The notes: a model not told the origin generated them from the letters alone. A stretch of 64,000 bases of DNA from an uncultured Christensenella sp. (GCA_949287685.1 CASEHF010000001.1:880-64879), one strand, 5' to 3'. Shown: positions 3,536 to 24,916, numbered from the stretch's first letter. Translations and numbers: made by a program.

Positions 3536-3649
3536 AAAATTTGTTCAATTTGCTTGTGATATTATTTATTTAATGCTATACTAATATAGTTATATGTTTC
3601 CATTTTTCACAAACAACTTTTTATACGCGTATAACGGAAAGGAGGATTT

Positions 3650-5227: not shown

Positions 5228-6949
5228 TTATACCGTTTTGTTTTCGCGGCGTTTTTTATTGTTTAGACTAATTACAATCGCAATAATTATCGCCAAAATC
5301 AATGATAAAATCATCAAAACAATACCTATAATTTGTGTGATTGTTAGCGTACCATCGTTTACAAAACTTTGCGACACATATCCCTGTTTAATTTCGCCGT
5401 TTATTAGATATTGAATTTTGCATATTCCGTTAGTTGTCTCTAGCACGGTGATACTGAACCCTTTTTCTAGCGTGTCTTGCTCGGTGCTAAGCCCCTCATC
5501 GGCATATACGATAGTTTCGGCGCGGGTGCTAGCATTGCTCACAATCGTGTTATCAATAGCAGTGTCGAATTCCACACCTACAGCAGTACGGCTGTCTATA
5601 TAGTATACATTGCCCTCAAATTTCACCGCTATAAAGTTAGTCCCAGAGCAATCACTAGGGAAAGTAGGCGCCTCCACAGTGTCTAGAGTTGTGCCATAAT
5701 CCACGCGTGCGCCAAATGGAGCGAATGCGGTTTCATCTTTCTTTACACTGAATGGGAGGTTGTATAATTTTGTTTGTTTCACGACCACGCGCACTTGTTG
5801 ACTCGAAATTGCGATAGATTGAATAGCAGAGTCGCTTTTTAGAATGTAGCCCAGTTTGTATGTGCCACTAAGATTGCTATCTAGCACATAGTAGAAGTGT
5901 TCGCTACTATTCTGGAGTAGTATTACGCTTTTTGAGTCGGAATAGGTGATGCTCGGCGAATTGAGACTTTGGTATTCGTAAAGTTTGGTGCCAGCATCCA
6001 CCCTCAAGACATCAACGACCTCTGATTTTTGTGTATAATTATACAAATCAATCGGCGCCTCAATCTCGCTATATGTGGTGATAAAATTCCCGAGTTCGCT
6101 TGTGATAGCGAATTTTTCAATCGTGTTTTGCTGTGCTAGGTAGCACGCCCCAGTTGTGTAGTCTAGCGTAAATTTCGAGTATCCTATACCAACTTCAACA
6201 GACTCGACAATTTCACTAATCTTATATAGAGTACTCCCGCTATAGCAGTAGACAATTTCCAAACTGTCCACACATATATCTAAAATATTTTGCGTTATTT
6301 CGGTTGAAATTTGTGTGATTTCATATGTTTTTAAGTTAATTTTATATAAATTTTCATCAATATTGAAATATCCAAAGGTTCCAAACTCGTTTACAGCAAA
6401 ATTTCCCACAGTAAATTCTAGCGGCATTTCCTCAAAAATCAACTCACAAACTTGATTTAGAATTAAGTCATTTGTGGTTTCATCATGGGTAACTTTTGCT
6501 AGTGTATTTCCGCTAATCAAGTAAATTTCCCCTGTAGCGCTTGCGGCAATCGCTCTGTTTTGAGTAGGAAAGGGCTCCACTGTGTTTTCATTTTTGTATA
6601 TGCTTATTTCTCGTGCTTCGCTTAAATTATCCAAGTCCAAAATGTATAAATATAAATTTTCTTTTATAAATATTAATTTATTATCAGCGGCATCTAGTGC
6701 TGTGATAATGCCCGTTGGGCTAGTGTATAATAGGTCGCCCGTTGTATTAAAAATATCTGTGCCATCAGTAAAATATAAGTTATTTTCATATAGCACTAAA
6801 TCGTTTATGTTAGATACATCACTTATGTCTAAATCAAGCGTGGTTTTGTTTATATTATAGGAAGTCGCAAACACTGGCGAAATATATAATATAGCCAGCA
6901 GCATAAAAAGCAATGCTATTCCATTTAAGATTACTTTTGTTTTCCTCAT
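5228..6949 (-). CDS. type-I membrane/secreted protein with C-terminal SH3b-like modules and a C-terminal TM anchor
   Basis: The track ORF extends to 7000 on a TTG. I prefer the ATG at 6949 (MRKTKVILNGIALLFMLLAILYISPVFA, a signal peptide). The C-terminus has SH3b-like segments (..GFSITVLETTNGICKIQYLINGEIKQGYV..), then a TM segment and a basic tail (NNKKRRENKTV). Confidence 0.7.
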   Translation of the reverse strand: MRKTKVILNGIALLFMLLAILYISPVFATSYNINKTTLDLDISDVSNINDLVLYENNLYFTDGTDIFNTTGDLLYTSPTGIITALDAADNKLIFIKENLYLYILDLDNLSEAREISIYKNENTVEPFPTQNRAIAASATGEIYLISGNTLAKVTHDETTNDLILNQVCELIFEEMPLEFTVGNFAVNEFGTFGYFNIDENLYKINLKTYEITQISTEITQNILDICVDSLEIVYCYSGSTLYKISEIVESVEVGIGYSKFTLDYTTGACYLAQQNTIEKFAITSELGNFITTYSEIEAPIDLYNYTQKSEVVDVLRVDAGTKLYEYQSLNSPSITYSDSKSVILLQNSSEHFYYVLDSNLSGTYKLGYILKSDSAIQSIAISSQQVRVVVKQTKLYNLPFSVKKDETAFAPFGARVDYGTTLDTVEAPTFPSDCSGTNFIAVKFEGNVYYIDSRTAVGVEFDTAIDNTIVSNASTRAETIVYADEGLSTEQDTLEKGFSITVLETTNGICKIQYLINGEIKQGYVSQSFVNDGTLTITQIIGIVLMILSLILAIIIAIVISLNNKKRRENKTV

Positions 6950-7159
6950 TTTCTTTATCCTTTTTAATATTATACCACAAATACCAATTAAAAAAAACAA
7001 AATAAATAAAAAAAGTTTAACATTTTTATAAATTTGTATGTTAGGTGTCAGTATTTTATATTTATAATACGAACATATGTTCTAAAACATTAAGAACACA
7101 ACATTTTTAAAAACAATAGAAAAAATTTGCAAAAATTTCGAAAAGTGTGGCGCGGGATA

Positions 7160-7189
7160 TTGACAAATGGTTTTTCTATAGGTTATGAT
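7160..7189 (+). promoter_or_regulatory. possible promoter of the sigma-like regulator gene
   Basis: TTGACA (7160-7165), an 18-nt spacer, then TATGAT (7184-7189). Confidence 0.3.
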
Positions 7190-7252: not shown

Positions 7253-7804
7253 ATGAAGAGTTTTATTTGGGCAAAAACGCTTTTTGAGGCGTATAAATAT
7301 CTAGGTAGGGTGATAAAGAGCATTGATAGATTAGTCCTATCGAGTGGTGTGCATAGTTATTCTTTACACCAATATGGTGAAAATACATTAGGAAAAATGG
7401 AGGCGATTATCGACCTTATTCAACGAAAAAAGCGGCTAGTGTTTATCAAGTTGATTATCGAGGAAGGAGTTAAAAACTTAGACTCCGAGGATGGAAAACT
7501 TTTAATTAGATATTATTTCGATAACATACCTACGGCACGCATAGCCGAGGAGTTAAATAGACCTAGGCGTACAATTCAGAGAAATATAAATGATGCGTTA
7601 GAAAACTTTATGCTAAAACTTCTAGAGCTCGGTTATAACACCGCTACAATAGAACAACTTTTAGAAAATGAAAGTTGGATACTCGGTGTATATAATAGTT
7701 ATGTTGCGAAATATCAAAACAAGGATAAAACGCTCGCTCCACTAACAATTCCAAAACTAAACCGAAATGACAAATTGATAAATTCCGTATATTGTGGTTT
7801 TTAA
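7253..7804 (+). CDS. sigma-70 region-4-like HTH protein (putative phage late-gene activator)
   Basis: AGGAGA RBS. The segment LLIRYYFDNIPTARIAEELNRPRRTIQRNINDALENF looks like a sigma region 4 / ArpU-RinA-type HTH. The gene sits just upstream of the terminase gene. Confidence 0.6.
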   Translation: MKSFIWAKTLFEAYKYLGRVIKSIDRLVLSSGVHSYSLHQYGENTLGKMEAIIDLIQRKKRLVFIKLIIEEGVKNLDSEDGKLLIRYYFDNIPTARIAEELNRPRRTIQRNINDALENFMLKLLELGYNTATIEQLLENESWILGVYNSYVAKYQNKDKTLAPLTIPKLNRNDKLINSVYCGF

Positions 7805-7861
7805 AAAATGCGAAAATGACTGCATAGTACCTAAAAAACGATAAAAATTTGCGATTTTTTA

Positions 7862-8677
7862 TTAAAAATCAAAGTTTTTATCATCTTTGCTTTCTGGGAG
7901 TGAGAGTCTGTTGAGATTCGCAATTTGCCTTGCTGCTACTTTTTTGTGCTTTCGTTTACTTGGCCTAAACACTAATAGCAGTAAAATTATAGCAGGTATT
8001 GTGAGTCCTAAAATGAGTAGCCAGTTGCTTCCGTTTTGCAATTCAGGTGCTATTACGGTACCACCATTTACTGCTTCGCTAGGTTCTGTTTCCACGATTT
8101 CAGTGTTGGGCAAAATTTCAGTTAAGTTGGTTGTCAGTGGCGCATAGACATAGCCGGTTAGTATCCCTTGCTCAAAACTTTTGTACCTGCAAAAATACCA
8201 AACATCCGTTAGTTCTGGGTTGACAAATTCACCCTTAACTTGCCCGAAGTATTCTATATCGGTTGCGTTAAACGGAATAGTCCCGATGTATTCGCTCGTA
8301 GTGTTTGGCTCACTGCGAATGACTAGATTCGCGACACCCTGCACACCGAAGGTTATGTTCTCGAGATATGGTGTTACTGGTGTCGAGTACACTCTCTCCA
8401 CATTATCGCGCAGTACATAACCGCTAAATTCGCGATAGGTGACATTTAAAAAAATTTCATCATACTCGCTATTGAATATTACAAAATACGAGGTCGGTAG
8501 CACAAAGTAAACATTGCTCGCTTCCTCTGAGTTTACTGGGGTGCGATATAGTATTGTATTCTCACTTGTGACACGATAATATGTGACTTCATCGGCTTTT
8601 GTAATAGGTAAATTACAAAAATCGGTCAAACAGAAAATGCATAAAAATGCAGTTAAAATGTATAAATATGCGCGCAT
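7862..8677 (-). CDS. type-I membrane protein with two SH3b-like domains
   Basis: AGGAGTG RBS and a signal peptide (MRAYLYILTAFLCIFCLTDFC). Two SH3b-like segments are present (..YYRVTSENTILYRTP.. and ..ANLVIRSEPNTTSEYIGTI..GYVYAPL), followed by a TM segment and a basic tail (RPSKRKHKK). Confidence 0.7.
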   Translation of the reverse strand: MRAYLYILTAFLCIFCLTDFCNLPITKADEVTYYRVTSENTILYRTPVNSEEASNVYFVLPTSYFVIFNSEYDEIFLNVTYREFSGYVLRDNVERVYSTPVTPYLENITFGVQGVANLVIRSEPNTTSEYIGTIPFNATDIEYFGQVKGEFVNPELTDVWYFCRYKSFEQGILTGYVYAPLTTNLTEILPNTEIVETEPSEAVNGGTVIAPELQNGSNWLLILGLTIPAIILLLLVFRPSKRKHKKVAARQIANLNRLSLPESKDDKNFDF

Positions 8678-8797
8678 AATTCACTCCTAATATATTTTAC
8701 CAAACAATGATTGTATTTCCATTTGCAATTATTGTTTTTTTTGCGAATTTTAAACCTAATGTTGGCATATTTTAGAAAATTTAGTTGATTTGGTGGT

Positions 8798-10243
8798 GTG
8801 ATGGATAACGAATTGTTAAATAAACTGTTACAAATTGATAATGAAATTAAACGGCGGCAGCGGAATAATAAGTTAGCCGAGTATAACAAAACCAAGGTTC
8901 ATAAAAAGCAAATGGCATTTCATAAATGTGACAAACGGAATCGTTGGGTGTTTGGTGGCAATAGAAGTGGGAAATCGCAATGCGGAGCGGTGGAGGCGGT
9001 GTGGTTGGCTCGAGGGATTCATCCCTTTCGCCCGAATAAAACTTGCGATGGGTGGGTGGTGAGTTTAAGTCAGCAGGTACAGCGTGATGTTGCTCAAAGC
9101 AAAATTTTATATTACCTTAATCCAGATTGGATAGTTGACATTATTATGCTGACAGGTCGCAAAGATTCCGCACAAAACGGGGTGATTGACTATATTTTGG
9201 TGAAAAATGTATTCGGTGAAGTGAGTAAAATCGGTTTTAAAACTTGTGATCAGGGCCGTGAAAAATTTCAAGGGACCAGTCTCGACTGGGTGTGGTTCGA
9301 TGAGGAGCCGCCGTTTGACATATATCTCGAGTGCCGTATGCGCGTGCTTGACCGCGAAGGTATTATTTTTGGCACGATGACTCCGTTAAAAGGGTTGACT
9401 TGGGTGTACGATAAAATTTATTTAAACGAGAGTGCCGACCCAGATGTATGGTATATCGAAATGGAGTGGGCGGACAATCCATATTTATCCAAGGCGGAGA
9501 TTGATGCGCTATCGCGGTCGCTTAGTAGCGATGAATTGAAAAGTCGCCGCTACGGGAAATTTATCACTAGAGGTGGGCTTGTTTATAGTGAATTTGATGC
9601 GAATGTGCATATAGTTGAGCCATTTTCGGTCCCGAAAGATTGGTATGATAACATTAGTATTGACCCGGGGCTGCACAATCCCCTAAGTGCGCATTGGTAC
9701 GCGGTCGATTATGATGGAAATATTTATGTCATCGCTGAGCACTATATGGCGGAGCAAACTATTGAGTTTCATGCGAATGCCATAATTGAAAAGTGTAAGA
9801 GCCTCGACTGGCCGACTGGCTTTGATATGAGATACTCAGCGCTAATAGATTCGGCGGCTAATCAAAAAACTTTGTCCTCGCCCAAAAGCGTGAGTGAAAT
9901 GTTTTACGACTATGGTGTAAATGTGAACACTAATGTAAATAAAGACCTCTTTTCGGGCATTTCCCGCGTAAAAAGTTACTTAAAAAACGCAAAAGGTGAG
10001 GCAAAATTGTTTATTTTCTCGACTTGTGTCAATATGATTCGCGAAATCAAAGGGTATTGGTGGGGGGAGGCTGATGTCCCGATTAAAAAAGATGACCACG
10101 CAATGGATGAACTGAGGTACTACATTATGTCGAGGCCCGAGCCGCACGAACCCGAAAAACCCGCTTTAAATGAAATTCAACTTCACAAAGAAAAATTGAT
10201 TTCGCAAAATAAACGCAGGCGACTGTTGTCAAGGAGATGGTAG
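8798..10243 (+). CDS. terL: phage terminase large subunit
   Basis: Walker A FGGNRSGKS, Walker B LDWVWFDEE, and C-terminal nuclease-type motifs (SIDPGLHNP, KKDDHAMDELRYY). The ATG at 8801 is the likely true start, because 8798 is GTG. Confidence 0.9.
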   Translation: MMDNELLNKLLQIDNEIKRRQRNNKLAEYNKTKVHKKQMAFHKCDKRNRWVFGGNRSGKSQCGAVEAVWLARGIHPFRPNKTCDGWVVSLSQQVQRDVAQSKILYYLNPDWIVDIIMLTGRKDSAQNGVIDYILVKNVFGEVSKIGFKTCDQGREKFQGTSLDWVWFDEEPPFDIYLECRMRVLDREGIIFGTMTPLKGLTWVYDKIYLNESADPDVWYIEMEWADNPYLSKAEIDALSRSLSSDELKSRRYGKFITRGGLVYSEFDANVHIVEPFSVPKDWYDNISIDPGLHNPLSAHWYAVDYDGNIYVIAEHYMAEQTIEFHANAIIEKCKSLDWPTGFDMRYSALIDSAANQKTLSSPKSVSEMFYDYGVNVNTNVNKDLFSGISRVKSYLKNAKGEAKLFIFSTCVNMIREIKGYWWGEADVPIKKDDHAMDELRYYIMSRPEPHEPEKPALNEIQLHKEKLISQNKRRRLLSRRW

Positions 10244-10244
10244 A

Positions 10245-10565
10245 TTGGATGCAGAAAAAGAAAGTGAAAAATTAACAAAATCGTTATTAAAAAAGGCTAT
10301 GGGTTACACGGTTGATGAAGTTGTTGAGGAGTATGTGAGTGAGGAGGATGAATTAAAACTTGTGAAAAAGAAAGTTACTAAAAAACACATTCCTCCTGAT
10401 ATAAACGCAGCGCGGGCTTTGCTGGAAAAGTGTTTTGATAATCAATTTAACAACTTGGCAGAACTATCAGATGCGGAGTTATCTAGCCTCCGCGAGCAGG
10501 TTCTAAACGAAATAAAAGAGCAGGAGCAGCAAAATGGAAATACAAAAAGCAAACCGAAAGTATAA
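10245..10565 (+). CDS. small acidic phage protein, possibly related to the C-terminal part of a terminase small subunit
   Basis: Starts 1 nt after the terL stop. The segment KKAMGYTVDEVVEEY..LKLVKKKVTKKHIPPDINAARALLE resembles a motif I recall from Firmicute phage TerS proteins (GYEYEE...K.V.K..PPD..A...L). That assignment is weak. Confidence 0.45.
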   Translation: MDAEKESEKLTKSLLKKAMGYTVDEVVEEYVSEEDELKLVKKKVTKKHIPPDINAARALLEKCFDNQFNNLAELSDAELSSLREQVLNEIKEQEQQNGNTKSKPKV

Positions 10566-10728
10566 ATGTGCGGGTGAGGTACTATGCAATGAAAAAGTCG
10601 AATTTTGCATTAAATTTAGTAAAAAAACCGTAAATTTATGCGAAAAATGCGCGCGAAATCTATTTCAACAACTTGGTACACATTTAGTCCCAAAGTCGAT
10701 TAAAAACAAATTTAATTACAAGGAGTAA
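10534..10728 (+). CDS. small Cys-rich (zinc-ribbon-like) phage protein
   Basis: An AGGAGC RBS precedes the ATG. Cys pairs occur at CAGEVLC and CEKC. The gene overlaps the upstream ORF and ends 3 nt before the portal gene. Confidence 0.45.
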   Translation: MEIQKANRKYKCAGEVLCNEKVEFCIKFSKKTVNLCEKCARNLFQQLGTHLVPKSIKNKFNYKE

Positions 10729-10731
10729 AAA

Positions 10732-12675
10732 ATGCAAAATAAAACAAAGAACACAACGAAGTCAAAAGACACTCGAGAGCGCGAATTAGTAAGCGAGATT
10801 CGCGAGGATTTTGAGCGTAGGCGCGAGGAGCGGAGACCCTTTGATGCGCAGTGGCAACTCAATATGAATTTCGTAATGGGTAACCAGTATTGCGGAATCA
10901 ATGCAAACGATACGCTTGATGATTTTGATAAGCAGTATTTTTGGCAAGAGCGCGAAGTGTATAATCACATCGCACCGATTGTCGAGATACGACTATCCAA
11001 ACTCGCTAAAGTTCGCCCCACTATGACAGTGTTGCCTGCTAGTGGCGATGAGGATGATATCAGCAATGCTCATGTTTGCAAAAACATTCTTCAATCGGTC
11101 ACCAGCAAACTCGAATTAAGTGAAAAAATAGCACAAGCCACTTATTGGAGCGAAATCTGTGGCACAGCGTTCTATAAAATTGTTTGGAATGACAGCGCGG
11201 GTGCTTTGCTCGGAATGACAACGGTTGGTGAGCGTATATATGAGGGCGATGTGGATATTGTCGTATGTTCGCCTTTCGAAATTTACCCCGACAGCAATTC
11301 GTGCGAGGATTTGGAAAGTTGCCGTAGCCTCATTCACGCCCGCGCCTATAATGTCGATGCCATTAAAAAGCATTGGGGAGTTGAGGTGAAAGGTGAGGAT
11401 ATCGATACCTATAATCTCGCCAATTCGCAAGTGGCAGGCGGGCTTGGGTATGTGACCCGCTCCGCAAAAATTGCGAAAACGACCAAGCACAATCAGGCTA
11501 TGGTCATAGAGCGCTATGAAATGCCAAATGATGAGTACCCCGATGGTAGGCTGGTGATAATTGCTGGCGACAAACTGCTTTACGATGGCATTTTGCCTTA
11601 TCAAAATTTGCACAACGGTGCTCGCGGTTTTCCCTTTATTCGACAAATTAGTATTACACAGCCCTCACTTTTTTGGGGTACGACAGTAGTAGAGCGCACG
11701 ATTCCTGTCCAACGCGCGTACAACGCTGTAAAAAATCGCAAGCACGAGTTTATAAATCGCCTCAGTATGGGGATTATGAGCGTAGAGGATGGTTCAGTCG
11801 ATGTCGAAAATCTCGAGGAGGAGGGGTTAAGTCCAGGCAAGATTTTAATTTATCGCCAGGGTGCGCGCGCTCCTCAAATTTTGCAAACACAAAGTTTGCC
11901 AGTTGATTTTCGCGATGAGGAGGAGAGGTTGCTAAACGAATTCTATACCGTGAGTGGCACTAGCGACTTGTTTAGTTCTAATACCTCGGCACTCGCGAGT
12001 CTCAGTGGGGTTGCGCTTCAGTTAATACTTGAGCAAGAGGATATGCGAATTTCGACAAGCGGCGAGTTCATAAAAAATGCAATAAAGGAAATCGGTCGCC
12101 ATATTTTGCGTATGTACAAGCAGTTTGCTACCTCTCAGCGTATGAATAAAATCGTGGGCGAAAATGGCAATAGTCGTCTGTTCTATTGGGACAATAGCGC
12201 GATTACTTCGGATGATATCGTTTTTGAGACCGAAACTGAACTCGGAGAAACGGTCGCCCAAAAACGCAGTATGGTATTTGATTTATTACAGGCAGGGTTA
12301 TTGCACGATGAAAATGGCAAATTGTCAAACGCTATGCGACTAAAAATTCTCGAATTACTCGGTTTCGGTATTTGGGAGGAGGCACTCGATAATAACAATT
12401 TGCAAGTCGAAAAAGCAAAACGCGAAAACATTGAGTTTATCGAGGGTAAAAATCCAGAAGTATCCGAGATACACGACCACGATTTGCATATATCGAGCCA
12501 CATAGCCTTTATGTTGAGTGGTGAATTTGACAATTATGCAAAAAATCGCAAAGATTTGCGCGAAAAAATGTTAGCACACATCCGCACACACAAGAAATTT
12601 AAAAAACTTTCGCAAATGGCGGAGTCCGTTTCATTAAGTGCGACACAAAATCAAGACACAGCACAGGAGGCATAG
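10732..12675 (+). CDS. phage portal protein
   Basis: A 647-aa protein encoded between the terminase and the scaffold/capsid genes. The N-terminal RRPFDAQWQLNMNFVMGNQY motif is portal-like. The call rests on size, position and this motif. Confidence 0.8.
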   Translation: MQNKTKNTTKSKDTRERELVSEIREDFERRREERRPFDAQWQLNMNFVMGNQYCGINANDTLDDFDKQYFWQEREVYNHIAPIVEIRLSKLAKVRPTMTVLPASGDEDDISNAHVCKNILQSVTSKLELSEKIAQATYWSEICGTAFYKIVWNDSAGALLGMTTVGERIYEGDVDIVVCSPFEIYPDSNSCEDLESCRSLIHARAYNVDAIKKHWGVEVKGEDIDTYNLANSQVAGGLGYVTRSAKIAKTTKHNQAMVIERYEMPNDEYPDGRLVIIAGDKLLYDGILPYQNLHNGARGFPFIRQISITQPSLFWGTTVVERTIPVQRAYNAVKNRKHEFINRLSMGIMSVEDGSVDVENLEEEGLSPGKILIYRQGARAPQILQTQSLPVDFRDEEERLLNEFYTVSGTSDLFSSNTSALASLSGVALQLILEQEDMRISTSGEFIKNAIKEIGRHILRMYKQFATSQRMNKIVGENGNSRLFYWDNSAITSDDIVFETETELGETVAQKRSMVFDLLQAGLLHDENGKLSNAMRLKILELLGFGIWEEALDNNNLQVEKAKRENIEFIEGKNPEVSEIHDHDLHISSHIAFMLSGEFDNYAKNRKDLREKMLAHIRTHKKFKKLSQMAESVSLSATQNQDTAQEA

Positions 12676-12676
12676 A

Positions 12677-13486
12677 ATGATAGAAAATCTACCATTTAGT
12701 TTACCTGAGTTTAACCTCGAGGAAATAAAAGATGATGGCTCGACTGATTTGGGGACTTTCAAGTCGGTAAAGACTTTAAAGGAGGCATATGACAGCTTGC
12801 GTAGTTGTTTTACAAAAAACGCGATGGAATTGGCAGAAATTAAGAAAAATATGTCTCAAAATGCGGATAATACACAAAATACCGAAAATAACGCCGAACT
12901 ATTCGCAAAACAAGACCAAAACGCCACAAAAGCGCCTCAAAATAACGAAAATTTGAGCAAACAGGCTGATTTAAATGAGATGAGAGCCGAGATTAATGAA
13001 AGCGATGATATTAGCCCCGTACAGTCAGACAAGGCACAGACCCCTGACACTACGATTACTTCGGACAAGGCAACAGCCCCCGAAAAACCGAACTTTTTGG
13101 ATAATGCAGATTGGTCCAAAAAGGCGGAAAAATTTTTTGAAACATACCCGATAGCGCGTGAGCATACAAAGGAACTTGCCGAAGCTTTGGCGAAAGACAA
13201 GAATTTTGTAAATAACGAAAATTCCCTTTTGGCTGCTTGGGTAAAAGTGCTAGAGCAAAATCGGTACAATGTCGAACTAACTGATGATTTTATCGAAAAA
13301 AACATTGTAAATAATCAAAAAATTAAAGATTTGATTATCAAAAACTATTTAAACGATATCAAAACTTTACGGTCTGCACCGCCAGTTATCGCTTCTAGTC
13401 AGGGAGTTTCCGCACAAGGAACGACTCATATTCGCGCAAACGATATGCAAGAAGCGAAAGAATTGGCAAAAAAACTATTTGAATAG
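12677..13486 (+). CDS. putative capsid scaffolding protein
   Basis: The preferred start is the ATG at 12677 (RBS AGGAGGCA), not the track start at 12638, which lies inside the portal gene. The protein is acidic, low-complexity and helical, and is encoded directly before the capsid genes. Confidence 0.55.
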   Translation: MIENLPFSLPEFNLEEIKDDGSTDLGTFKSVKTLKEAYDSLRSCFTKNAMELAEIKKNMSQNADNTQNTENNAELFAKQDQNATKAPQNNENLSKQADLNEMRAEINESDDISPVQSDKAQTPDTTITSDKATAPEKPNFLDNADWSKKAEKFFETYPIAREHTKELAEALAKDKNFVNNENSLLAAWVKVLEQNRYNVELTDDFIEKNIVNNQKIKDLIIKNYLNDIKTLRSAPPVIASSQGVSAQGTTHIRANDMQEAKELAKKLFE

Positions 13487-13496
13487 GAGATGAAGT

Positions 13497-14675
13497 ATGA
13501 TTACATTACAGACTGCACAAAACGCCTTGAAAACTATTTATCTCGAGGCGATTAGCAATCAGTTAAATTCGTGCGTGGACCCTGTGTTTAATATGATTAA
13601 GCAGAGTACCGCCGATGTTTATGGTAGAAATATCGTAAAACTTGTCCCGTTCGGACTAAATGGCGGGATTGGCGCTGGTGATGAAACTGGTGCACTACCC
13701 GCAGGGGCTGACAGCCATTATGTGAATTTTACCACAACATTGAAAAATTTGTATGGAATGATTGAAATTTCGGATAAAGCAATTCGCTCCTCTGCGAACG
13801 ATGAGGGCGCTTTTGTAAATCTGCTGACTGCGGAAATGGATGGACTACTGCAGTCGAGCAAGTTCAACCTTAGTCGTATGTTTTACGGAGATGGAAGTGG
13901 AAATTTAATTAAATCTATCAGCGCTATCGACACAACGAACAAAGCAATGACAGTCGACAACTCGTATGCATTTGCGGAAGGTATGCTGCTTGACTTTTAT
14001 ATGTCCAATGTTCTTGATGCGAATATGAAAGGGGTCGAGGTGCTGAAAGTTGATCACGCTAACAAAAAAGTTTACTTAAGCACTGTGTCCTCGAACTTTA
14101 CCGACACGAATAAGACCAAATACACCGTTTGTGTTCAGGGTAGCAAGGACAAGGAACTCACAGGACTTGGTGCGTTGTTTGATTCTGATGCTACTACACT
14201 CTATGGTATTACTAGGGCAAACTATGCGTACTTGATGCCGTTGACATATACAAAACAAAGTACTGACACTTTTAATGAAAAGTTTATCCAAAAATATATA
14301 GATTTGCTCGAGGTTAGGTCTGGTTATCAGCCTGACATTATCGTTTGTGGTGGTGACACGCTTTACGACATTATGGATATGTTGGCAGGTTATGCGACTA
14401 ATATCGATGCGGCAAACCTGACAGGCGGATACACCAGCGTATCATTCTGTGGGGTGCCTTTGATTAGAAATCGCTTTGACTCTGCTGACAACTTAATGAT
14501 GCTAAATACGACACAGTTTACCTTGCATCAACTTTGCGATTGGGAGTGGCTCACTCACAACGATGGCTCAATTTTAAAACAAAAAGAAGGTTATGCGACA
14601 TATTCCGCAACTCTAGTAAAATACGCGGATTTAATATGTGACAGACCAAATGCGCAAGCATTAATTACATTATAG
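13497..14675 (+). CDS. phage major capsid protein, paralog 1
   Basis: A 392-aa protein with a GGAG RBS, encoded right after the scaffold gene. It is alignable end to end with the next gene. An HK97-type fold is inferred from size and position only. Confidence 0.75.
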   Translation: MITLQTAQNALKTIYLEAISNQLNSCVDPVFNMIKQSTADVYGRNIVKLVPFGLNGGIGAGDETGALPAGADSHYVNFTTTLKNLYGMIEISDKAIRSSANDEGAFVNLLTAEMDGLLQSSKFNLSRMFYGDGSGNLIKSISAIDTTNKAMTVDNSYAFAEGMLLDFYMSNVLDANMKGVEVLKVDHANKKVYLSTVSSNFTDTNKTKYTVCVQGSKDKELTGLGALFDSDATTLYGITRANYAYLMPLTYTKQSTDTFNEKFIQKYIDLLEVRSGYQPDIIVCGGDTLYDIMDMLAGYATNIDAANLTGGYTSVSFCGVPLIRNRFDSADNLMMLNTTQFTLHQLCDWEWLTHNDGSILKQKEGYATYSATLVKYADLICDRPNAQALITL

Positions 14676-14687
14676 GGAGGTTAGAAA

Positions 14688-15854
14688 ATGATATCTTTAA
14701 CTACAGCGGATAGCGCTTTGAAAAATGTTTATCTTGATGTGATTACAAACCAGTTAAACAACAAACTCGACCCTTTTTATGCAAAAATCGATAAAACTAC
14801 TCAAGATGTAGCGGGAAATGAGGTCAAAAAATTGGTAGCTCTAGGCATCAATGGTGGTATCGGGGCAGGTTCTGAAATCGGTTCGCTGCCAACATCGCAT
14901 GAGAATAACTACCTAGCCCTTACCTCCAAACTAAAAAACCTTTATGGCACAATCGAAATCTCGGACAAGGCTTTGCGCGCGAGTCGCAGTGAGGCTGGTG
15001 CGTTTTTGAATTTGCTCAATGCGGAAATGGAGAATTTGATTGAGTCAAGCCGATTTAATTTTAGGCGTATGCTGTATGGTGATGGCTCGGGGTATTTGGG
15101 TAGTGTAAATGATGATGTTGCTGGTAGCAATGTGTACGAGGTGACAGACCCATACCGTTTTGTGGTTGGGATGCGACTTGATGGATATACCGAGGAGGGA
15201 ACTCCACTGGAAACATACCAAAATCAAACCGTACTCGATGTAAACTACGAGGAGTCCACCATAACTCTACCAATAGCGGTCACCGAGGAACTTGAACTTG
15301 AGCCGATTCGCCTTTATTTTGCAGGGTCAAGGGACAAGGAATTTATAGGTTTAGAGGGAGTATGCAATGCCAATATTAAAGAAATTTATGGTATTGACCG
15401 TACAAATATCTCAGCTCTAAATGCTCTAAATGAAAGTTATGGAACATTGACTATAACTGCGCTAATGAAAACATTGGATAATTTAAAACTAAACTCAAAC
15501 TCTACTAGCGACTTTATTATCAGTAGTTATCACTTTAGGCAGAAATTGCAAGAGGTTTTAAAACAAAAAAGTATGAATACAGACATCACAATGCTGGAGG
15601 GGGGATTTAGGTCGATTACTTTCAATGGTATGCCTGTTTATACTGTACAATTTGTAGAAGATGGATGTGCTTACATACTTGATTCCTCTGTTTGGCATAT
15701 GCACCAGCTCTGTGACTGGACTTGGTTAACCAACAACAAGGGCGAAGTGCTACACCAGCGTGAGGGATATCCTACACATGTTGCGACTTTGGTTAAATAC
15801 TGTGATTTAATTTGCAATCGCCCAAACACAATTGCTAAGGTAAAATCAATTTAA
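14688..15854 (+). CDS. phage major capsid protein, paralog 2 (possible vertex/penton specialist)
   Basis: A 388-aa protein with a GGGAGG RBS. It shares blocks with paralog 1: L/INGGIGAG, LKNLYG.IEISDKA.R.S, M.YGDGSG, HQLCDW.WLT.N.G and ATLVKY.DLIC.RPN. Confidence 0.75.
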   Translation: MISLTTADSALKNVYLDVITNQLNNKLDPFYAKIDKTTQDVAGNEVKKLVALGINGGIGAGSEIGSLPTSHENNYLALTSKLKNLYGTIEISDKALRASRSEAGAFLNLLNAEMENLIESSRFNFRRMLYGDGSGYLGSVNDDVAGSNVYEVTDPYRFVVGMRLDGYTEEGTPLETYQNQTVLDVNYEESTITLPIAVTEELELEPIRLYFAGSRDKEFIGLEGVCNANIKEIYGIDRTNISALNALNESYGTLTITALMKTLDNLKLNSNSTSDFIISSYHFRQKLQEVLKQKSMNTDITMLEGGFRSITFNGMPVYTVQFVEDGCAYILDSSVWHMHQLCDWTWLTNNKGEVLHQREGYPTHVATLVKYCDLICNRPNTIAKVKSI

Positions 15855-15855
15855 A

Positions 15856-16236
15856 ATGGCTTTAATTAGCATAAAAAATGATGTTTTTAACATTTGCGAG
15901 CGTATAAAGCGCATAAATCCGCATTATTTTGTAGTGTACAATACAGACAGACATCAATACGAAGTGCATAATTCTAAACAATTTGCTAATACATTCTGCA
16001 TTTCTTGCGAAAATGGGTTAAATTATAGTGTTATTTCAAAATTAAGAAAGACAAAAATCGAAAATATAGACAAAATTGTGAAAGAAATAGATGAAATTAA
16101 CGAAAAAATTGAAAAAAACACAAAAAAAGAGATAATGGATGTCGCAAGTGTAAAAGCACAAGAAATGTTTAATTACGCCAAAACTAAAATTGATGATTGC
16201 AATTTTGATGATAGTTATATAACTAAATGGGTTTAA
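15856..16236 (+). CDS. phage hypothetical protein (Lys/Glu-rich C-terminal half)
   Basis: Starts 1 nt after the capsid gene stop and fits the operon packing. No family recognised. Confidence 0.55.
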   Translation: MALISIKNDVFNICERIKRINPHYFVVYNTDRHQYEVHNSKQFANTFCISCENGLNYSVISKLRKTKIENIDKIVKEIDEINEKIEKNTKKEIMDVASVKAQEMFNYAKTKIDDCNFDDSYITKWV

Positions 16237-16247
16237 AAGGAGGAAAT

Positions 16248-16817
16248 ATGACAGCAAAAGATGTTATAAAGCATTCGGTAATGTACTTAGGCGAGGGAAA
16301 TCTTGCTTCGACTACCTCGTTAGGTGGCACGGAAGTGCCCGATGACCAGCAAACCGAAAAACTAAATATTTTGCTAACTTGCGTAAATGATGTTGTAGAA
16401 ACACTTGCTTTAATGTATTTTCCCTTAAAATATGAGGAAAAAGTGCAAAATGATACTGGTTTTGTTAGTTTTTCCGAATTAAGCAAAGATTTAGTGGATT
16501 TATTAAAAGTCGTTGATAAATACGGCTATGAATTAGGTTTTAATGCATTTCCTACATATTTCGAGGCGCCAAAAGGCGAGATTACCGTTGTTTATAACTA
16601 TGCGCCGACTGAAGTCGATGATTTTACGGATACTTTGGAGATTGCCGAGGGAAATGTTACCTTGAGGATGCTGAGCATTGGCGTTGTGAGCAGGTACTAC
16701 TTGATTACAGGTATGTACAACGATGCTGAAGCGTGGCAAAATATGTTTGAACGCGCAGTTTTAGTAGCAAAACGCCCAAAAACTGCTAAATTTATTAAAA
16801 AAAGAAGGTGGTTTTAG
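16248..16817 (+). CDS. phage hypothetical protein, possible head-tail adaptor
   Basis: The preferred start is 16248 (RBS AAGGAGGAAATATG), whereas the track start is 16227. The adaptor role is suggested only by position after the capsid genes. Confidence 0.5.
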   Translation: MTAKDVIKHSVMYLGEGNLASTTSLGGTEVPDDQQTEKLNILLTCVNDVVETLALMYFPLKYEEKVQNDTGFVSFSELSKDLVDLLKVVDKYGYELGFNAFPTYFEAPKGEITVVYNYAPTEVDDFTDTLEIAEGNVTLRMLSIGVVSRYYLITGMYNDAEAWQNMFERAVLVAKRPKTAKFIKKRRWF

Positions 16818-18298
16818 TGTTTTATACTGAAAATGTACCCAATATTAGCAAAAATAACTTGCGCGTAAAGTTTAGCGACTTCTCAAAAGGAATCAACACA
16901 AATATTGCCGAAAACATTTTACCTCTAAATTACGCAGTTAATGCGTTTAATTACGATTTTAATTCTGGCGCACTGACTCCGGGGCTTGGATTAAAAGAGT
17001 TGGAGATTTATAACGGTAGTACTACTAAAAATATGTTTATGCCAGAAGTCGGTGTTAGCATTAAAAAATTTTGGCATTTTAGGCGCTACGACCACAGTTT
17101 AAATCAATTTTCACCGCTTTTAATGGTGTATACTGATAATGAAAAAATATTTATGGGCAGATTAATGACTCAAGACTATTTTTTCTACGACACAGGTAAG
17201 ACCTTTGATACCGAGCCTACAGGCATAAATTATAGAATCGATGACACTGATTGCTTTTTATGTTGTTCCCCTAATGAAATTACTGTATTTAACGGAACTA
17301 CTACTCCCACGACTTATTCAAATAATGTCCCTGATATAACTTCGGTTGCGCTGCACGCAGGTAGATTGTTTGCGACTACAGGCGGCGACCAGAGTCAACT
17401 TTGGTTTAGTGATGACTTAAATCCGACCAACTGGAATGTTAGCGCTTTCGAGGGTGGTTACATCGAACTCACTGATGAGCGCGGTACGCTAAAAAAGGTC
17501 ATTGAGTCAAATAATTATCTCTATGTGATTAGAGAGTATGGCATCACGCGTGTATCGGGTTGGGGGCTACAGGATGAGTTCACCGTGACCAACTTGTATC
17601 TTACGACTGGCAAACTTTATCACAATAGTGCCGTGTTGTGTGGTGGTGTAATTATGATGCTTTGTCGTGATGGAATTTATTATTTTACTGGCTCCACTAT
17701 GCAAAAACTTGAGTTAGGACTAGATAAATACTTCAAAAATGTCGACAATAGCAACGCAATTGGTGCTTTTTTAGATGGAAAGTACTATTTGGCGTGTCGA
17801 CTGAATTTTGATGATGCTACAATCGGCTGCGAAAGTGCGACTTATGTAAATAATGCCTTAATAGAGTATGATTTGGAAAACGGTAACATAAACATTTTGA
17901 GAGGCGTTGATATTTGTAGTTTGACACCTTTCCAAACTGAATGGTTTAGTAAATTGGTGGTTTGCCGCCGCGATGCTGAGACCAATAAATTGAGTGAGGT
18001 AACGCATGATGGCTTGATTTATAACACGCCAACGAAAAAAGTCTGGACCAGCGCAATGACTGATATCGGTTACCCTGCATATAAAAAAGCTATTCGCTCG
18101 TTATGTTTAAATACTACAAAAGATGTGGAAATAACTATCAAAACGGATGAAAAAGCGTATAATTTTAATGTAAAAGGCTCAAATTCTCCCGTAAAAGTAC
18201 CAATAAATCTAATCACTAAAAAATTTAGTGTTACTTTTTCGAGTAATACTGCTGATTGCGAAATATCAAATCCCGAACTTGAGGTGTCGCTATGTTAA
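16808..18298 (+). CDS. phage structural protein of unknown role (496 aa, beta-rich)
   Basis: GTG start overlapping the previous gene. This is the largest ORF of the distal part and a candidate tail/nozzle or receptor-binding component. No family recognised. Confidence 0.6.
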   Translation: MVLVFYTENVPNISKNNLRVKFSDFSKGINTNIAENILPLNYAVNAFNYDFNSGALTPGLGLKELEIYNGSTTKNMFMPEVGVSIKKFWHFRRYDHSLNQFSPLLMVYTDNEKIFMGRLMTQDYFFYDTGKTFDTEPTGINYRIDDTDCFLCCSPNEITVFNGTTTPTTYSNNVPDITSVALHAGRLFATTGGDQSQLWFSDDLNPTNWNVSAFEGGYIELTDERGTLKKVIESNNYLYVIREYGITRVSGWGLQDEFTVTNLYLTTGKLYHNSAVLCGGVIMMLCRDGIYYFTGSTMQKLELGLDKYFKNVDNSNAIGAFLDGKYYLACRLNFDDATIGCESATYVNNALIEYDLENGNINILRGVDICSLTPFQTEWFSKLVVCRRDAETNKLSEVTHDGLIYNTPTKKVWTSAMTDIGYPAYKKAIRSLCLNTTKDVEITIKTDEKAYNFNVKGSNSPVKVPINLITKKFSVTFSSNTADCEISNPELEVSLC

Positions 18299-18771
18299 GT
18301 AAATTCGTAACACCACAAGACAATTTGGCAAAAATCGAGGATTTGGAGCAGAAAGTAGATTATTTGCTTGAGCAATTAAAAATTCTCAAAAATACCGATA
18401 TAAAGCCTAATTTCATCACTTCATATTCGGCGACAACTCATACAATAAGCGCCGAAGGAATTGGTACAGGCTCGATACCTTTGTTGAATTTTAGTGGTCA
18501 GGCTAATAAAAAAGGCTTTGGGATAGTGAATGCAATCTTTAATACGGACACGGCGCATAATATAATGGCATCATTGAGTTTTTCAAGTAATTTACAACTG
18601 AATACTTTTAATTTACCCGCCGGCAATACTCCTATAACACTCTGTATTGAAATTAATTTAGGGGAAAACTTGATTGGAAATTTAAACATACTAGCAGGTG
18701 AGGCGGATGTAAAGGTATCAAACATCAGCGTTTTAGTGATAGGGGAAAATGTCATAGAAACATCTACATAA
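18292..18771 (+). CDS. phage hypothetical protein (N-terminal coiled-coil, beta-rich C-terminus)
   Basis: Overlaps the upstream stop by 7 nt. The IEDLEQKVDYLLEQLKILK helix is followed by a beta-rich region, which is fiber/spike-like in style only. Confidence 0.5.
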   Translation: MLSKFVTPQDNLAKIEDLEQKVDYLLEQLKILKNTDIKPNFITSYSATTHTISAEGIGTGSIPLLNFSGQANKKGFGIVNAIFNTDTAHNIMASLSFSSNLQLNTFNLPAGNTPITLCIEINLGENLIGNLNILAGEADVKVSNISVLVIGENVIETST

Positions 18772-18935
18772 AAGTTGCAGCAATGTTTATTGTTATTAAA
18801 CTAATGCATAGTACTATAAAAATTGTGTAAAAAAGGTGATAAAAATGCAAAAAATAAATTATACAAGCAAAATTAAAGTAATAAAATTAATTAAAAAGAT
18901 AAAAAAAGAAAAATATTTAAGAAACGGAGGTTTTT

Positions 18936-19925
18936 ATGCAAACGGAAGTTTTAGATGATGAAAAAAGAAAAAATGAAGAGACTGAGAGTAAAATCAGTGA
19001 AGCGCAAAATGTCTCAACTCAAGACAGTTCACAGGTTGGTGATATTGAAAATTCTGGTTCTGTAGCGGTCGGTAATTCTAGCAATGCGCCATTAACTGCT
19101 GGTGTTGACATCGATGCAGTTAAGGACCACTTGCAAGAAATTGAGGATGAGTTTGCTTCGCAATATCCTGTATTTAACGAATCGATTTACGAAGGGCTAG
19201 ATTACAAGAGGGTCGAAATGCCTACGGCTGAAACTATCGAACGAGAGGCACAGAGTGATCTTAGTGGATATAGACAGAGCAATATCGAGAATATACAAAT
19301 TGATTATTTGGCGGATGTCAACTCGTTAAAAAACAAGGAAAATGCGGTGCAGAGCGATTTGGATGCCACTCAAAGCGAACTTGGGGCGGAGCGAGTAACT
19401 GGGCTTGCGGAGCAGCAGGCGCAAAATATTTCACAAGGGATTGAGCGCTCGAGCATAGCGGGCAACCGTGCTGCTGCTTTTAATGCCGCGATTGACAAAG
19501 AACTCGAGGCGGCGCTTAATCAGGCAAACACTGAAATGGCAGAAATTTCCTTGAAGCGTGAAATTGCAGAAAGCGAATTTAGACAAGCATTGGAAAATTT
19601 TGATATTACCTATGCTAACAAGTTGGAAAATCGCATTTCGGAGTTGACAAAAGAGTATTCGAAAAAGCAAGCCGAAGCTGTGGAGTACAACGAACGCATT
19701 CAAAAGCAGCGTGAAAGAGTGTATAACGAGTGGAAGCGCTGGGCTGACACCTATACTTCACAACTAGATTCTCAAAAAGGTATGCAAAAAGCGTACTATG
19801 TCATCGACCAGATCAAGGATATGTCTCGCCGCGATGCTAAGGAATTTTTGAAAGATGGAGACATCGTAAAAGCACTTGGTATTTGGTACAACGCTGTACT
19901 TGACTATGTGGACAGAGTCCTATAA
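18936..19925 (+). CDS. phage hypothetical acidic coiled-coil protein
   Basis: GGAGG RBS. Long helical Q/E/A-rich segments. No family recognised. Confidence 0.55.
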   Translation: MQTEVLDDEKRKNEETESKISEAQNVSTQDSSQVGDIENSGSVAVGNSSNAPLTAGVDIDAVKDHLQEIEDEFASQYPVFNESIYEGLDYKRVEMPTAETIEREAQSDLSGYRQSNIENIQIDYLADVNSLKNKENAVQSDLDATQSELGAERVTGLAEQQAQNISQGIERSSIAGNRAAAFNAAIDKELEAALNQANTEMAEISLKREIAESEFRQALENFDITYANKLENRISELTKEYSKKQAEAVEYNERIQKQRERVYNEWKRWADTYTSQLDSQKGMQKAYYVIDQIKDMSRRDAKEFLKDGDIVKALGIWYNAVLDYVDRVL

Positions 19926-19937
19926 AGAGGTAATATA

Positions 19938-20762
19938 ATGAGTCAAAGCTTAAAAAACAGGCTCAAAAGTTACAGTTTTTGGGTGTCACTAGCAAGTGCG
20001 GTATTGCTGCTTGTCCAAGCAATCGGAAAGCCTCTGGGGCTAGTTATCAATGAGGAGATATATATGTCGATTGTCAACAGTGTGCTTGGGGTGTTTGTCG
20101 TGCTCGGTATCATTTCGCATCCTGCGCAAAATTTACTAAGCAACAAGGACAATCAAAGTGCAACGGTTACGGATAGTACGACTACAGATGGGGCTCTAGA
20201 GGTAAAAACTCAAGATATTGTCGCAAAAAGTGCTAAAAATTCAACGAAAAACGAAGTTTTTTCTCAAAATTTAAATAGTTCAACTACTAATACACGCGTT
20301 TTGAAGGAGGAAAACTCAAGCGGTTTAAGCTTAAATTTAAATGATTTGCAAAGTAGCATTGGGCTGACCGTTAATGAAAATTGCAGCAATGCTGATACAT
20401 ATGGCAATACCAGTATAAACGATGATGTTGCTTTGAGTGACATAAATATTAATAAGGCATACACAAACGATACGAGCACTAGGTCATTGAGTTTGGGCAA
20501 CAACATATTAAATAATAGTAGTAATGGAGAATTTGGTGGCACTAATTACATGAATGGAAGTCCTATTCAAAAAGAGATAGGCAATTCTATTCAAAGTGGT
20601 AAAATAAGTAATTTCGATAATCAAAGTCAAGTAGCAAGTTCGACCGTAAATACACCTCATATAATAAACGGTGTCGAAGTAAAAAATTACTTAAGCGGCG
20701 AGATTAAAAACAGTTCGGGTGGTGTAGAACAGGACAATAAAAGCGATAGTGCAGATAGTTAG
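19938..20762 (+). CDS. holin-like protein (phi LC3-family-like N-terminus) with a long S/N/T-rich C-terminal extension
   Basis: The N-terminus LKNRLKSYSFWVSLASAVLLLVQAIGKPLGLVI...VNSVLGVFVVLGIISHP matches my recollection of phi LC3-type holins (W..R.KNKTFW.ALIPA.LLLVQAV...VVNA.F.VL..LGIV.DP). The remaining roughly 200 aa are low complexity. Confidence 0.6.
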   Translation: MSQSLKNRLKSYSFWVSLASAVLLLVQAIGKPLGLVINEEIYMSIVNSVLGVFVVLGIISHPAQNLLSNKDNQSATVTDSTTTDGALEVKTQDIVAKSAKNSTKNEVFSQNLNSSTTNTRVLKEENSSGLSLNLNDLQSSIGLTVNENCSNADTYGNTSINDDVALSDININKAYTNDTSTRSLSLGNNILNNSSNGEFGGTNYMNGSPIQKEIGNSIQSGKISNFDNQSQVASSTVNTPHIINGVEVKNYLSGEIKNSSGGVEQDNKSDSADS

Positions 20763-21322
20763 GATTATTCTGCTACTGCTAAAACTAATTACCTAATTTG
20801 TATGATTTTTATAGTACTGGGAAGGAGGGTGAAAATGCCCTCTTTCTTTTTTATAAATTTTTTACCATGTGTAAAATTAAATAATTATACTTGTATTTTT
20901 TTTTAAAAATAGATAAAAATCAGCATATTTAATCAAAAATATAGTGCTATGCAATAATCTTTAATATTGCATAGTGCTGTAAATTATAAAATTTTTATCA
21001 AACAAAAATTTTTGCTAACCTCGGGGTTTGGGTATTTAAAGTTTACTAAATATTGCTTGATTTGTAAGTGATTATTTTAATGTTACGAGGCAAATTATTG
21101 TATTATTTTTCGATGACAAATGATGTTTTTAGGGCTTAATTTTTGATCTAAACACTTAATATTTTGTATAGGTGTTTTTAGTAAATATTTTCTAAACCAT
21201 GTGAGTTTGATATTCCCAATCAAGTGTGAGGTCTGTTGTTTTTTGCTGTAAAAAACTGTAAATTTAAAAATAAAAAAAGATTGTTAACCTAATTTATAAA
21301 ATAGGCTACAATCTATTTAATC

Positions 21323-23165: not shown

Positions 23166-23280
23166 TATTCATTATACGAAGTATATCATCATAAAACATT
23201 CTTGGGTTAGTACGAGGGTAACATATCAAAAGTGTACCATTATACACTTCAACTATACCGCAGGATTTGTAGTAAAGTCA

Positions 23281-23697: not shown

Positions 23698-23739
23698 GTT
23701 GTATTGTTTACCAGTGCATTGGTATTAATGTCTAATTTA

Positions 23740-24863: not shown

Positions 24864-24915
24864 CAGCAGTGCGTAGTCGGTGCGTAGGCGTACCAAAGGA
24901 TCTATTCTGCTTTAA
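24864..24915 (+). repeat. single degenerate W-type repeat unit (cluster R3)
   Basis: CAGCAGTGCGTAGTCGGTGCGTAGGCGTACCAAAGGATCTATTCTGCTTTAA, lying between convergent genes and ending 1 nt before the ylbJ stop. Confidence 0.6.
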
Positions 24916-24916
24916 A

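Follow-up and report, generated by a model that had tools for sequence, protein, structure and literature searches.

We analysed a stretch of 64,000 nucleotides from a Christensenella sp. (GCA_949287685.1 CASEHF010000001.1:880-64879; hereafter the window, meaning this whole stretch) and conclude with high confidence that the phage-like gene cluster at positions 7253-20762 is a domesticated, vertically inherited particle module derived from a podovirus. The element is best read as similar to a gene transfer agent (GTA) and not as a sporadic prophage. Packaging and transfer of random host DNA is its likeliest role, to which we assign a probability of about 0.6, because of the analogy with known elements, the apparent remnant of a small terminase subunit (TerS) and the packaging data published for the host family.

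The window is part of a bacterial chromosome, as it carries a 16S rRNA gene and tRNAs, and the GC content of the cluster is similar to that of the rest of the window. The open reading frames (ORFs) of the cluster form a tight run on the plus strand, with overlaps or gaps of a few bases between genes, and the span from the large terminase gene (TerL) to the holin gene is 12 kb in the window and 8.4-13.6 kb (median 10 kb) across 38 loci. All ORFs of the cluster and their window neighbours were scanned against Pfam, PHROGs and NCBIfam. For gene presence across genomes, ORFs were called and clustered in 86 loci (designated by L numbers) and then assigned with family hidden Markov models, each count being given relative to the loci with coverage. 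The ORFs and coordinates are those of the initial annotation, a reading made from the sequence alone, apart from small corrections of starts: gene calls on an identical contig give 8801 (TerL), 12677 (scaffold), 16248 (189-aa protein) and 16817 (493-aa protein) as the likely starts. The features of the cluster are:

7253-7804, plus strand: 183-aa regulator with a sigma-70 region-4 helix-turn-helix (HTH) alone (PHROG_36; ortholog profile against PDB); in 45/66 loci
7862-8677, minus strand: 271-aa exported, membrane-anchored protein with SH3b-like repeats (weak SH3_3 match), between the regulator and TerL
8703-8740, unstranded: inverted repeat AACAATGATTG-N11-CAATTATTGTTTTTT, candidate operator or promoter element of the late operon, directly upstream of TerL
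8801-10243, plus strand: TerL, ATPase and nuclease (Terminase_6N, PHROG_2)
10245-10565, plus strand: 106-aa small-terminase-like protein, p106 (PHROG_309); in 73/73 loci
10534-10728, plus strand: 64-aa conserved small protein, gene-called on identical contigs; in 59/73 loci
10732-12675, plus strand: portal of P22/SU10 type, 647 aa (PF16510, PHROG_156); in 73/73 loci
12677-13486, plus strand: acidic scaffold-like protein, 269 aa (position between portal and capsid, composition); in 77/77 loci
13497-14675, plus strand: major capsid protein 1, MCP1 (NF033394, PHROG_14242)
14688-15854, plus strand: major capsid protein 2, MCP2, paralog of MCP1 (NF033394)
15856-16236, plus strand: 126-aa conserved protein, in 73/76 loci; FpGTA, the GTA-like element of Faecalibacterium prausnitzii, has a small unknown gene in the equivalent slot
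16248-16817, plus strand: predicted head-to-tail adaptor, 189 aa (AlphaFold2 and Foldseek); in 76/76 loci
16817-18298, plus strand: predicted tail nozzle/hub, 493 aa, beta-propeller and beta-sandwich (AlphaFold2 and Foldseek); in 68/68 loci
18292-18771, plus strand: variable protein of 159 aa whose N-terminal part is a coiled coil; may serve in the tail as needle, fibre or receptor-binding protein
18936-19925, plus strand: 329-aa DUF7934 coiled-coil protein (PF25588); in 30/57 loci
19938-20762, plus strand: holin with a long Ser/Asn/Thr-rich C-terminal extension (PF04531, PHROG_297)

The packaging motor and most of the head could be assigned by family matches. TerL scored above the cutoff of Terminase_6N (37 bits) and matched PHROG_2 (E = 2.7e-31); the Walker A, Walker B and nuclease motifs quoted in the initial annotation are present in the translation, and the two Walker motifs and the acidic residues of the nuclease do not vary among 22 orthologs of 58-79% identity. 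The 647-aa protein called as a portal belongs to the P22_portal family PF16510 (75 bits against a cutoff of 26) and to PHROG_156 (E = 6e-34). Among the p106 orthologs, 13/25 match PHROG_309 'terminase small subunit' (best E = 1.8e-8), and because the match of the window protein, in the single alignment shown, is restricted to profile positions 197-241 of 319, p106 looks, from its sequence, like a TerS remnant that lacks the N-terminal DNA-binding part. For the 269-aa acidic protein, position and composition fit the scaffold role first proposed and lead us to infer it, while zero matches were obtained in Pfam, PHROGs or NCBIfam. The 126-aa protein that follows the capsid genes matched no family and no PDB sequence.

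Both predicted capsid genes pass NCBIfam NF033394 'phage major capsid protein' (213 bits for MCP1 and 200 bits for MCP2, cutoff 80), MCP1 also matching PHROG_14242 (E = 6e-43), and the two proteins are 40% identical over their full length. Two copies were found in 11 species-level genomes of those compared (the window, L005, L007-L012, L024, L038 and L042), the operon of the single-capsid relatives being otherwise identical. In the tree, MCP1 and MCP2 form one monophyletic set each; both proteins are constrained, with MCP2 dN at 0.29-0.48 and dS saturated. This points to one old duplication that has been kept in one subclade.

The distal genes were assigned by fold. A confident all-beta AlphaFold2 model of the 493-aa protein (496 aa as first called), built with 52 homologs (pLDDT 88, pTM 0.88), had as its best PDB matches in Foldseek the nozzle or hub proteins of podoviruses, headed by that of Pa223 (9nwi_Y; E = 4e-21, TM 0.71) and further including those of VP1, GP4, SU10, PhiM1, P22 gp10 and T7 gp12; its matches in the BFVD viral library include proteins of the P22 Gp10 family. 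Sequence identity to the matched podovirus proteins is only 8-13%. The model of the 189-aa protein (pLDDT 89.6) likewise retrieved podovirus adaptors at the top of its PDB matches (KHP30 7wmp_m, E = 1e-6; Pa223 9nwi_A, TM 0.64), followed by those of N4, SU10 and T7 gp11. Profiles of the nozzle, the adaptor, the DUF7934 protein, the 126-aa protein and MCP gave nothing meaningful against PDB sequences, so that for the adaptor and the nozzle the comparison of folds worked where the profile search had not. On these models the 493-aa protein is predicted to be a podovirus tail nozzle and the 189-aa protein a podovirus head-to-tail adaptor. The set of a P22/SU10-type portal, a 12-mer adaptor fold and a beta-propeller nozzle fold is complete, and with the adaptor and nozzle folds the coding content of the cluster extends from the head and the packaging motor to a short tail of the podovirus kind. 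The structure predictions suggested at the outset thus bore out the guess of a podovirus-like element by giving two of its unassigned proteins adaptor and nozzle folds; the label 'head-gene cluster' was right for the head genes and undersold the locus, which encodes a short tail as well.

The slot after the nozzle is occupied, across about 40 loci, by non-homologous ORFs of 119-660 aa that share an N-terminal 'aY.k..dLE' coiled-coil motif; the 159-aa protein found there in the window matched no family. This pattern suggests a modular needle, fibre or receptor-binding protein. The DUF7934 protein that follows (PF25588, 81 bits against a cutoff of 30) has a homolog in a larger phage-like relative, L137, and is probably associated with the virion; literature searches retrieved no description of this domain. 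In about one-third of the loci, including those of the named Ca. Onthoplasma, the variable gene and the DUF7934 gene are both missing and the nozzle is followed directly by the holin. The holin-like call was upheld by matches to PF04531 Phage_holin_1 and PHROG_297 (E = 4.8e-12); the cluster ends with a holin in 49/55 loci, and a BhlA-type holin is additionally present in 29/55.

The cluster is widespread and conserved in organization. MCP1 has more than 6000 homologs in a database clustered at 90% identity, many of them on contigs of 0.1-0.8 Mb, and at E = 1e-30 or better the capsid protein falls into 188 clusters at the 50%-identity level. In a scan of one genome per species, at least 575 GTDB species genomes encode the cluster, the named carriers being Christensenellaceae, Christensenella, Ca. 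Onthoplasma, Ca. Scatosoma and 'Clostridia bacterium' metagenome-assembled genomes (MAGs) from animal and human guts. Gene order is collinear among the carrier genomes, which are mostly Christensenellales MAGs, and the core, consisting of p106, portal, scaffold, MCP (82/82 loci), adaptor and nozzle, was detected at every covered locus. Contigs listed as 'viral' in IMG/VR that encode the capsid are copies of this chromosomal locus, host flanks included, and are mostly short fragments. Phage-like relatives with extra structural genes share no more than 36% MCP identity, and the best MCP match among cultured phages is about 25% identical (Arthrobacter and Microbacterium phages). Two larger phage-like elements that are isolate-genome entries of IMG/VR, L137 (IMGVR_UViG_2875135583_000001, 48 kb) and L176 (IMGVR_UViG_2887785357_000001, 35 kb), share the portal, scaffold, MCP and 126-aa protein with the cluster (MCP identity 36% for L137); L137 additionally has the nozzle, DUF7934, and Hoc-like and Ig-domain proteins, and L176 the adaptor. 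These two types are candidates for the free-living ancestor type.

The mode of evolution is that of a resident of the chromosome. Pairwise distances of the element proteins correlate with those of flanking genes (Spearman 0.17-0.81, most 0.46-0.81), and over the same genome pairs MCP and TerL are less diverged than the host RNase J (p-distance 0.39 against 0.49). Between species dS is saturated and dN is 0.15-0.5, with omega at about 0.1-0.3 where computable; dN/dS is well below 1 in every gene, and near-identical contigs from other samples differ almost exclusively at synonymous positions. Vertical inheritance and long-term purifying selection over the host clade, as expected of a GTA, are therefore what we found, and the comparison across genomes that the initial annotation had called for gave the outcome it associated with domestication, namely a conserved locus, often at the same chromosomal site. 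A domesticated GTA-like module, one of the explanations offered there, fits the conserved order, the co-divergence with the host, the purifying selection and the absence of integrase and replication genes. Another of its explanations, a prophage whose early arm is missing or has decayed, is not supported, as the left flank consists of host genes in the relatives too and the genes are not decaying. A defective remnant, that is, a podovirus late arm that has lost its early genes and is drifting towards decay, would account for the lack of integrase, repressor and replication genes and would suit both the NCBI name of the capsid, simply 'phage major capsid protein', and the listing of such fragments as viral in IMG/VR. 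We nevertheless consider it extremely improbable, since at least 575 species carry the cluster in intact, collinear form, every gene has a dN/dS well below 1, TerL and MCP have changed less than RNase J, the catalytic motifs are invariant and a non-coding control element is conserved, none of which is expected of a decaying remnant.

Whether the locus is still mobile was judged from its neighbourhood. On the left, the recurrent host neighbours are SpoIIGA, a sigma factor, a polysaccharide deacetylase and a 217-aa SSB-family protein, seen in the window (3-329, plus strand) and in the left flanks of L014, L019, L024, L032, L059 and L071; on the right they are two membrane proteins, RNase J and an O-methyltransferase. 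The initial annotation had counted the SSB-like ORF at the start of the window as the only replication-type gene; this ORF is 71% identical to its L059 ortholog and is a host gene that flanks the cluster in many genomes. In the 10-kb flanks of 80 loci, 148 representative non-core ORFs belong to housekeeping or sporulation families, including ABC transporters, acetate kinase, ribosomal protein S2, EF-Ts, SpoIVA, Mur ligases, Obg and a tRNA synthetase, and the top 25 families listed for each scan of these flanks (Pfam, PHROGs) include none for integrases, recombinases or replication. In the cluster and the scanned window neighbours we found no integrase, repressor module, polymerase, primase or tape-measure-sized ORF, and the family scans thereby agree with the initial annotation, which had recognised no integrase, repressor, replication, tape-measure or lysin gene of the cluster. 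The locus accordingly lacks what marks an intact temperate prophage (integrase, att repeats, a repressor or lysogeny module and replication genes), and equally the integrase, AlpA-type regulator and primase or replication module of a capsid-forming phage-inducible chromosomal island (cf-PICI) or other satellite, while having its own adaptor and nozzle; a structural cluster devoid of its own replication, integration and excision genes is what a GTA would present.

A small podophage, or a satellite similar to a cf-PICI, that is still mobile at one conserved site and replicated by the host or a helper would be compatible with the compact size (12-13.5 kb), the possession of a terminase, a capsid, a tail and a late regulator of phage type, and the recurrence at the same site. 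It is nonetheless very improbable in our view: neither the cluster nor, among the families listed, the 80-locus flanks contain an integrase, excisionase, primase or replication gene, there are no att-like direct repeats, the element co-diverges with the flanking host genes, and its TerS-like protein lacks a DNA-recognition domain. The capsid-encoding satellite suggested in the initial annotation is likewise not supported, for want of an integrase, a replication module and any sign of mobility.

Ahead of the operon lies the gene that had been described as a sigma-region-4-like regulator. Pfam and profile searches agree with this description and show the region 4 HTH only: the window protein matches the PHROG_36 transcriptional regulators (E = 1.8e-9), a profile of 25 orthologs hits region 4 of SigF, SigW and SigL in PDB (2e-6 to 3e-4), and the orthologs contain Sigma70_r4_2 in 14/25 cases and DUF1492 in 6/25. 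By its sequence, this 183-aa protein resembles a phage late-gene activator. The SH3b-like membrane protein is present in 51/70 loci, invariably between the regulator and TerL and on the opposite strand, and the trio made up of regulator, SH3b protein and TerL adjoins the structural genes in 54/71 loci. Immediately upstream of TerL, the 38-bp inverted repeat at 8703-8740 occurs as a single copy in the window; its right arm does not vary among 8 loci of the subclade despite saturated synonymous sites, and the full pattern was matched in seven loci, each time upstream of TerL. Folded alone, without the left arm, the right arm gave no signal (z = 0). From its sequence and position, the repeat may serve the late operon as operator or promoter; a terminator is another possibility.

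Putting these elements together, we infer how the module would be controlled, how a head of small capacity would be filled without specificity, and how particles would be released and pass DNA on. The sigma-region-4 regulator would turn on the late operon through the conserved site upstream of TerL; the scaffold, the portal and one or two capsid proteins would assemble a small procapsid, which TerL would fill by a headful mechanism with the available DNA, aided by a TerS remnant devoid of a DNA-recognition domain; the adaptor, the nozzle and the variable needle or fibre protein would then seal the portal and make the short tail. The holin or holins, together with a lysin encoded elsewhere, would lyse the producer cell, and the released particles would take random fragments of host DNA to related cells.

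The main rival to gene transfer is that the module is domesticated for another purpose, such as a killer particle or bacteriocin of the PBSX kind, a phage decoy or a device for lysis and DNA release, any packaged DNA being incidental. The evidence of conservation and selection fits this explanation equally well, PBSX offers a Firmicute precedent that packages host DNA without transferring it, and a variable gene resembling those of receptor-binding proteins would also suit a killing particle. Known killer particles, however, have contractile or flexible tails and are not DNA-filled podovirus heads, the intact TerL with its invariant ATPase and nuclease motifs argues that packaging itself is selected, and FpGTA, the nearest functional precedent, has been read as GTA-like; we thus regard a role other than transfer as unlikely, although it has to be taken seriously.

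Several observations weigh against a GTA-like module. In 17/71 loci (L016, L017, L022, L030, L033, L044, L049, L053, L055, L057, L060, L063, L065, L073, L077, L080 and L081) the trio is away from p106 and the portal, and host genes abut p106. The DUF7934 and variable genes are absent in about half of the loci. No lysin was found among the ORFs of the cluster, the conserved downstream membrane proteins c15 and c18 and ten further window ORFs; a rare single integrase match could be hidden behind the 25 top families of the flank scans, and particles and their DNA content are predicted here from the genes. As to the displaced trio, in only two IMG/VR cases (L181/L134 and L183/L101) could it be located on the contig that holds the structural genes, at a distance of more than 20 kb from them, and the detachment suggests a split, multi-locus layout as in other GTAs.

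Three further features border the cluster:

5228-7000, minus strand: 590-aa exported protein with a C-terminal membrane anchor, an accessory neighbour divergent from the regulator; a homolog is found here in 19/56 loci with enough upstream sequence, and the family scans gave zero matches
7160-7189, plus strand: sigma-70-type promoter-like site upstream of the regulator gene (TTGACA-18-TATGAT, 11/12 matches; a consensus match alone)
20819-20848, plus strand: terminator-like hairpin that would close the operon (13-pair stem followed by TTTTAT; a pattern match alone)

The wider window holds other elements. The cluster often lies beside sporulation-type genes. Three extra surface-protein genes are inserted in the window between the SSB-like gene and the cluster; unlike most relatives, the window has a leucine-rich-repeat (LRR) gene and two unknowns (3035-5014) in this interval. 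The large surface-protein genes of the window (909-2747, 26165-28261 and 61821-63419) comprise one with BspA-type LRRs and two with InlB B-repeats or Listeria-Bacteroides repeats. Direct repeats of 83 nt and 37 nt, at about 0.7 kb and 23.5 kb, were considered as att sites and rejected, as they belong to a dispersed intergenic host repeat with the core GAAGGATCTATTCCKCTTAA, present in 15 copies against about 0.01 expected by chance (623-752, 23278-23699, 24880-24916, 28265-29457, 36052-36353 and 60856-61368); the longer 83-nt copies at 623-705 and 23571-23653 are 78% identical. It looks like a REP/MITE-like host element, and Rfam gave no family above the gathering threshold over these sites. 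The regulator gene and an ORF at 24285-24824 have an AT-rich leader in common, but the two are not paralogs. Three kb downstream of the holin, a 141-aa protein with two Cro/CI-type (XRE) HTH domains (23740-24165, minus strand) is probably unrelated to the cluster, homologs having been found in only two related loci. Finally, a tRNA-Thr followed by an odd 100-nt 'tRNA-Ala' call lies at 35064-35307 (ARAGORN 35208-35307; Rfam 35233-35304, only 33.6 bits), and after the tRNAs comes a complete 16S rRNA gene (37055-38569), with no 23S match above threshold in the window.

To our knowledge, very few GTAs have an identified gene cluster, nearly all of them in Alphaproteobacteria, and a podovirus-type element was reported for the first time only in 2024-2026, in Faecalibacterium. 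Against this background, a wider proposal can be put forward tentatively, with chances that we place somewhat below even: the cluster would represent an order-wide GTA of the Christensenellales, a podovirus would have been domesticated in gut Clostridia a second time and independently, and the particles with 4-7 kb of host DNA in human gut viromes, which have no assigned source, would come from this cluster; in one subclade, two paralogs would build the capsid, for example as penton and hexon specialists. If true, the two-paralog capsid would be without precedent for a GTA. A second lineage, unrelated in its details and fixed in hundreds of Christensenellales species, would make domesticated particles that package DNA a recurring trait of gut Clostridia, would give the GTA-like packaging seen in Christensenellaceae a concrete, testable locus, and would lead to a new classification of these loci, which viromes and prophage predictors at present list as 'viral contigs' or 'incomplete prophages'. 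Direct experimental handles are available in the regulator, the operator-like site and the two-capsid variant.

Among known systems, PBSX of Bacillus subtilis resembles the cluster in being a phage-derived element of a Firmicute chromosome, which packages random host DNA in small heads; it differs in being a contractile-tailed, myovirus-like killer particle of about 28 kb, and no relation in sequence or architecture is apparent beyond a weak TerL match (TIGR01547, E = 1.6e-6, far below the cutoff). With the podoviruses P22, T7, SU10 and Pa223 the cluster shares the P22-type portal family and the adaptor and nozzle folds, Pa223 being best for both, and with P22 a (predicted) scaffold without a prohead protease; unlike in these phages, genes for a tailspike, for ejection proteins, for early functions or for genome replication could not be recognised.

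The GTA of Rhodobacter capsulatus (RcGTA) and other alphaproteobacterial GTAs are likewise phage-derived structural clusters that are chromosomally fixed, vertically inherited and under purifying selection, and RcGTA has a TerS without sequence-specific DNA binding and lysis genes that are partly elsewhere. Its dedicated activator GafA is described as related to sigma-factor domains (PMC9638019), and in this respect too the cluster is similar. RcGTA is, in contrast, siphovirus-like, with a tape measure, a long tail and control by CtrA and quorum sensing; the sequences are unrelated, the host phylum is different and the match of the adaptor to the RcGTA neck is weak (6toa, TM about 0.25).

The closest counterpart is FpGTA, presented by its authors as the first podovirus-like GTA-like element (PMC12946183, Nat Commun 2026). 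It consists of a 10.5-kb operon encoding a TerS without DNA-binding domain, TerL, portal, MCP, adaptor and nozzle, and of a second operon of 5.5 kb with fibre, holin and endolysin genes; its particles measure 40 nm and contain about 9 kb of random host DNA, and the order in the proteomics table is TerL, portal, Prp-like protein, MCP, an unknown, adaptor, nozzle, one more gene and 'TolA' (PMC12946183). Like FpGTA, the cluster is (i) a podovirus-like chromosomal operon of about 10 kb in gut Clostridia, without replication or integration genes, (ii) collinear in the order TerL, portal, a variable item, MCP, a small protein, adaptor, nozzle, one gene and a coiled-coil protein, the DUF7934 gene occupying the slot of the abundant 'TolA' particle protein, and (iii) near-universal within its host clade and equipped with a TerS candidate devoid of a DNA-binding domain. 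There are also differences. The hosts are Christensenellales-type MAGs here and Oscillospirales there; the FpGTA capsid is annotated as N4-gp56 (RCH50849.1), whereas both MCPs of the cluster match, within NCBIfam, only NF033394 and not the N4-gp56 model at E = 0.01 or better; an acidic scaffold-like protein without Pfam match stands in place of the Prp-like protein; the TerS-like gene follows TerL instead of preceding it; the holin lies within the operon, while FpGTA has its holin, endolysin and fibre genes in the second one; and the sigma-region-4 regulator and the SH3b membrane protein upstream, as well as the two capsid paralogs of one subclade, are peculiar to the cluster in this comparison. 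Homologs of FpGTA were not found even in Gemmiger or Subdoligranulum (PMC12946183). We therefore treat the cluster as one that works like FpGTA, without counting it in the FpGTA family. Our literature searches found no paper describing a GTA locus of the Christensenellales or the locus of the window; GTA-like packaging has been recorded in Christensenellaceae MAGs, with the locus unassigned and modal fragment sizes of about 6.3 kb in QANA01 and about 4.1 and 7.1 kb in HGM11616 (PMC12946183), and the cluster is the obvious candidate locus for this packaging of 4-7 kb.

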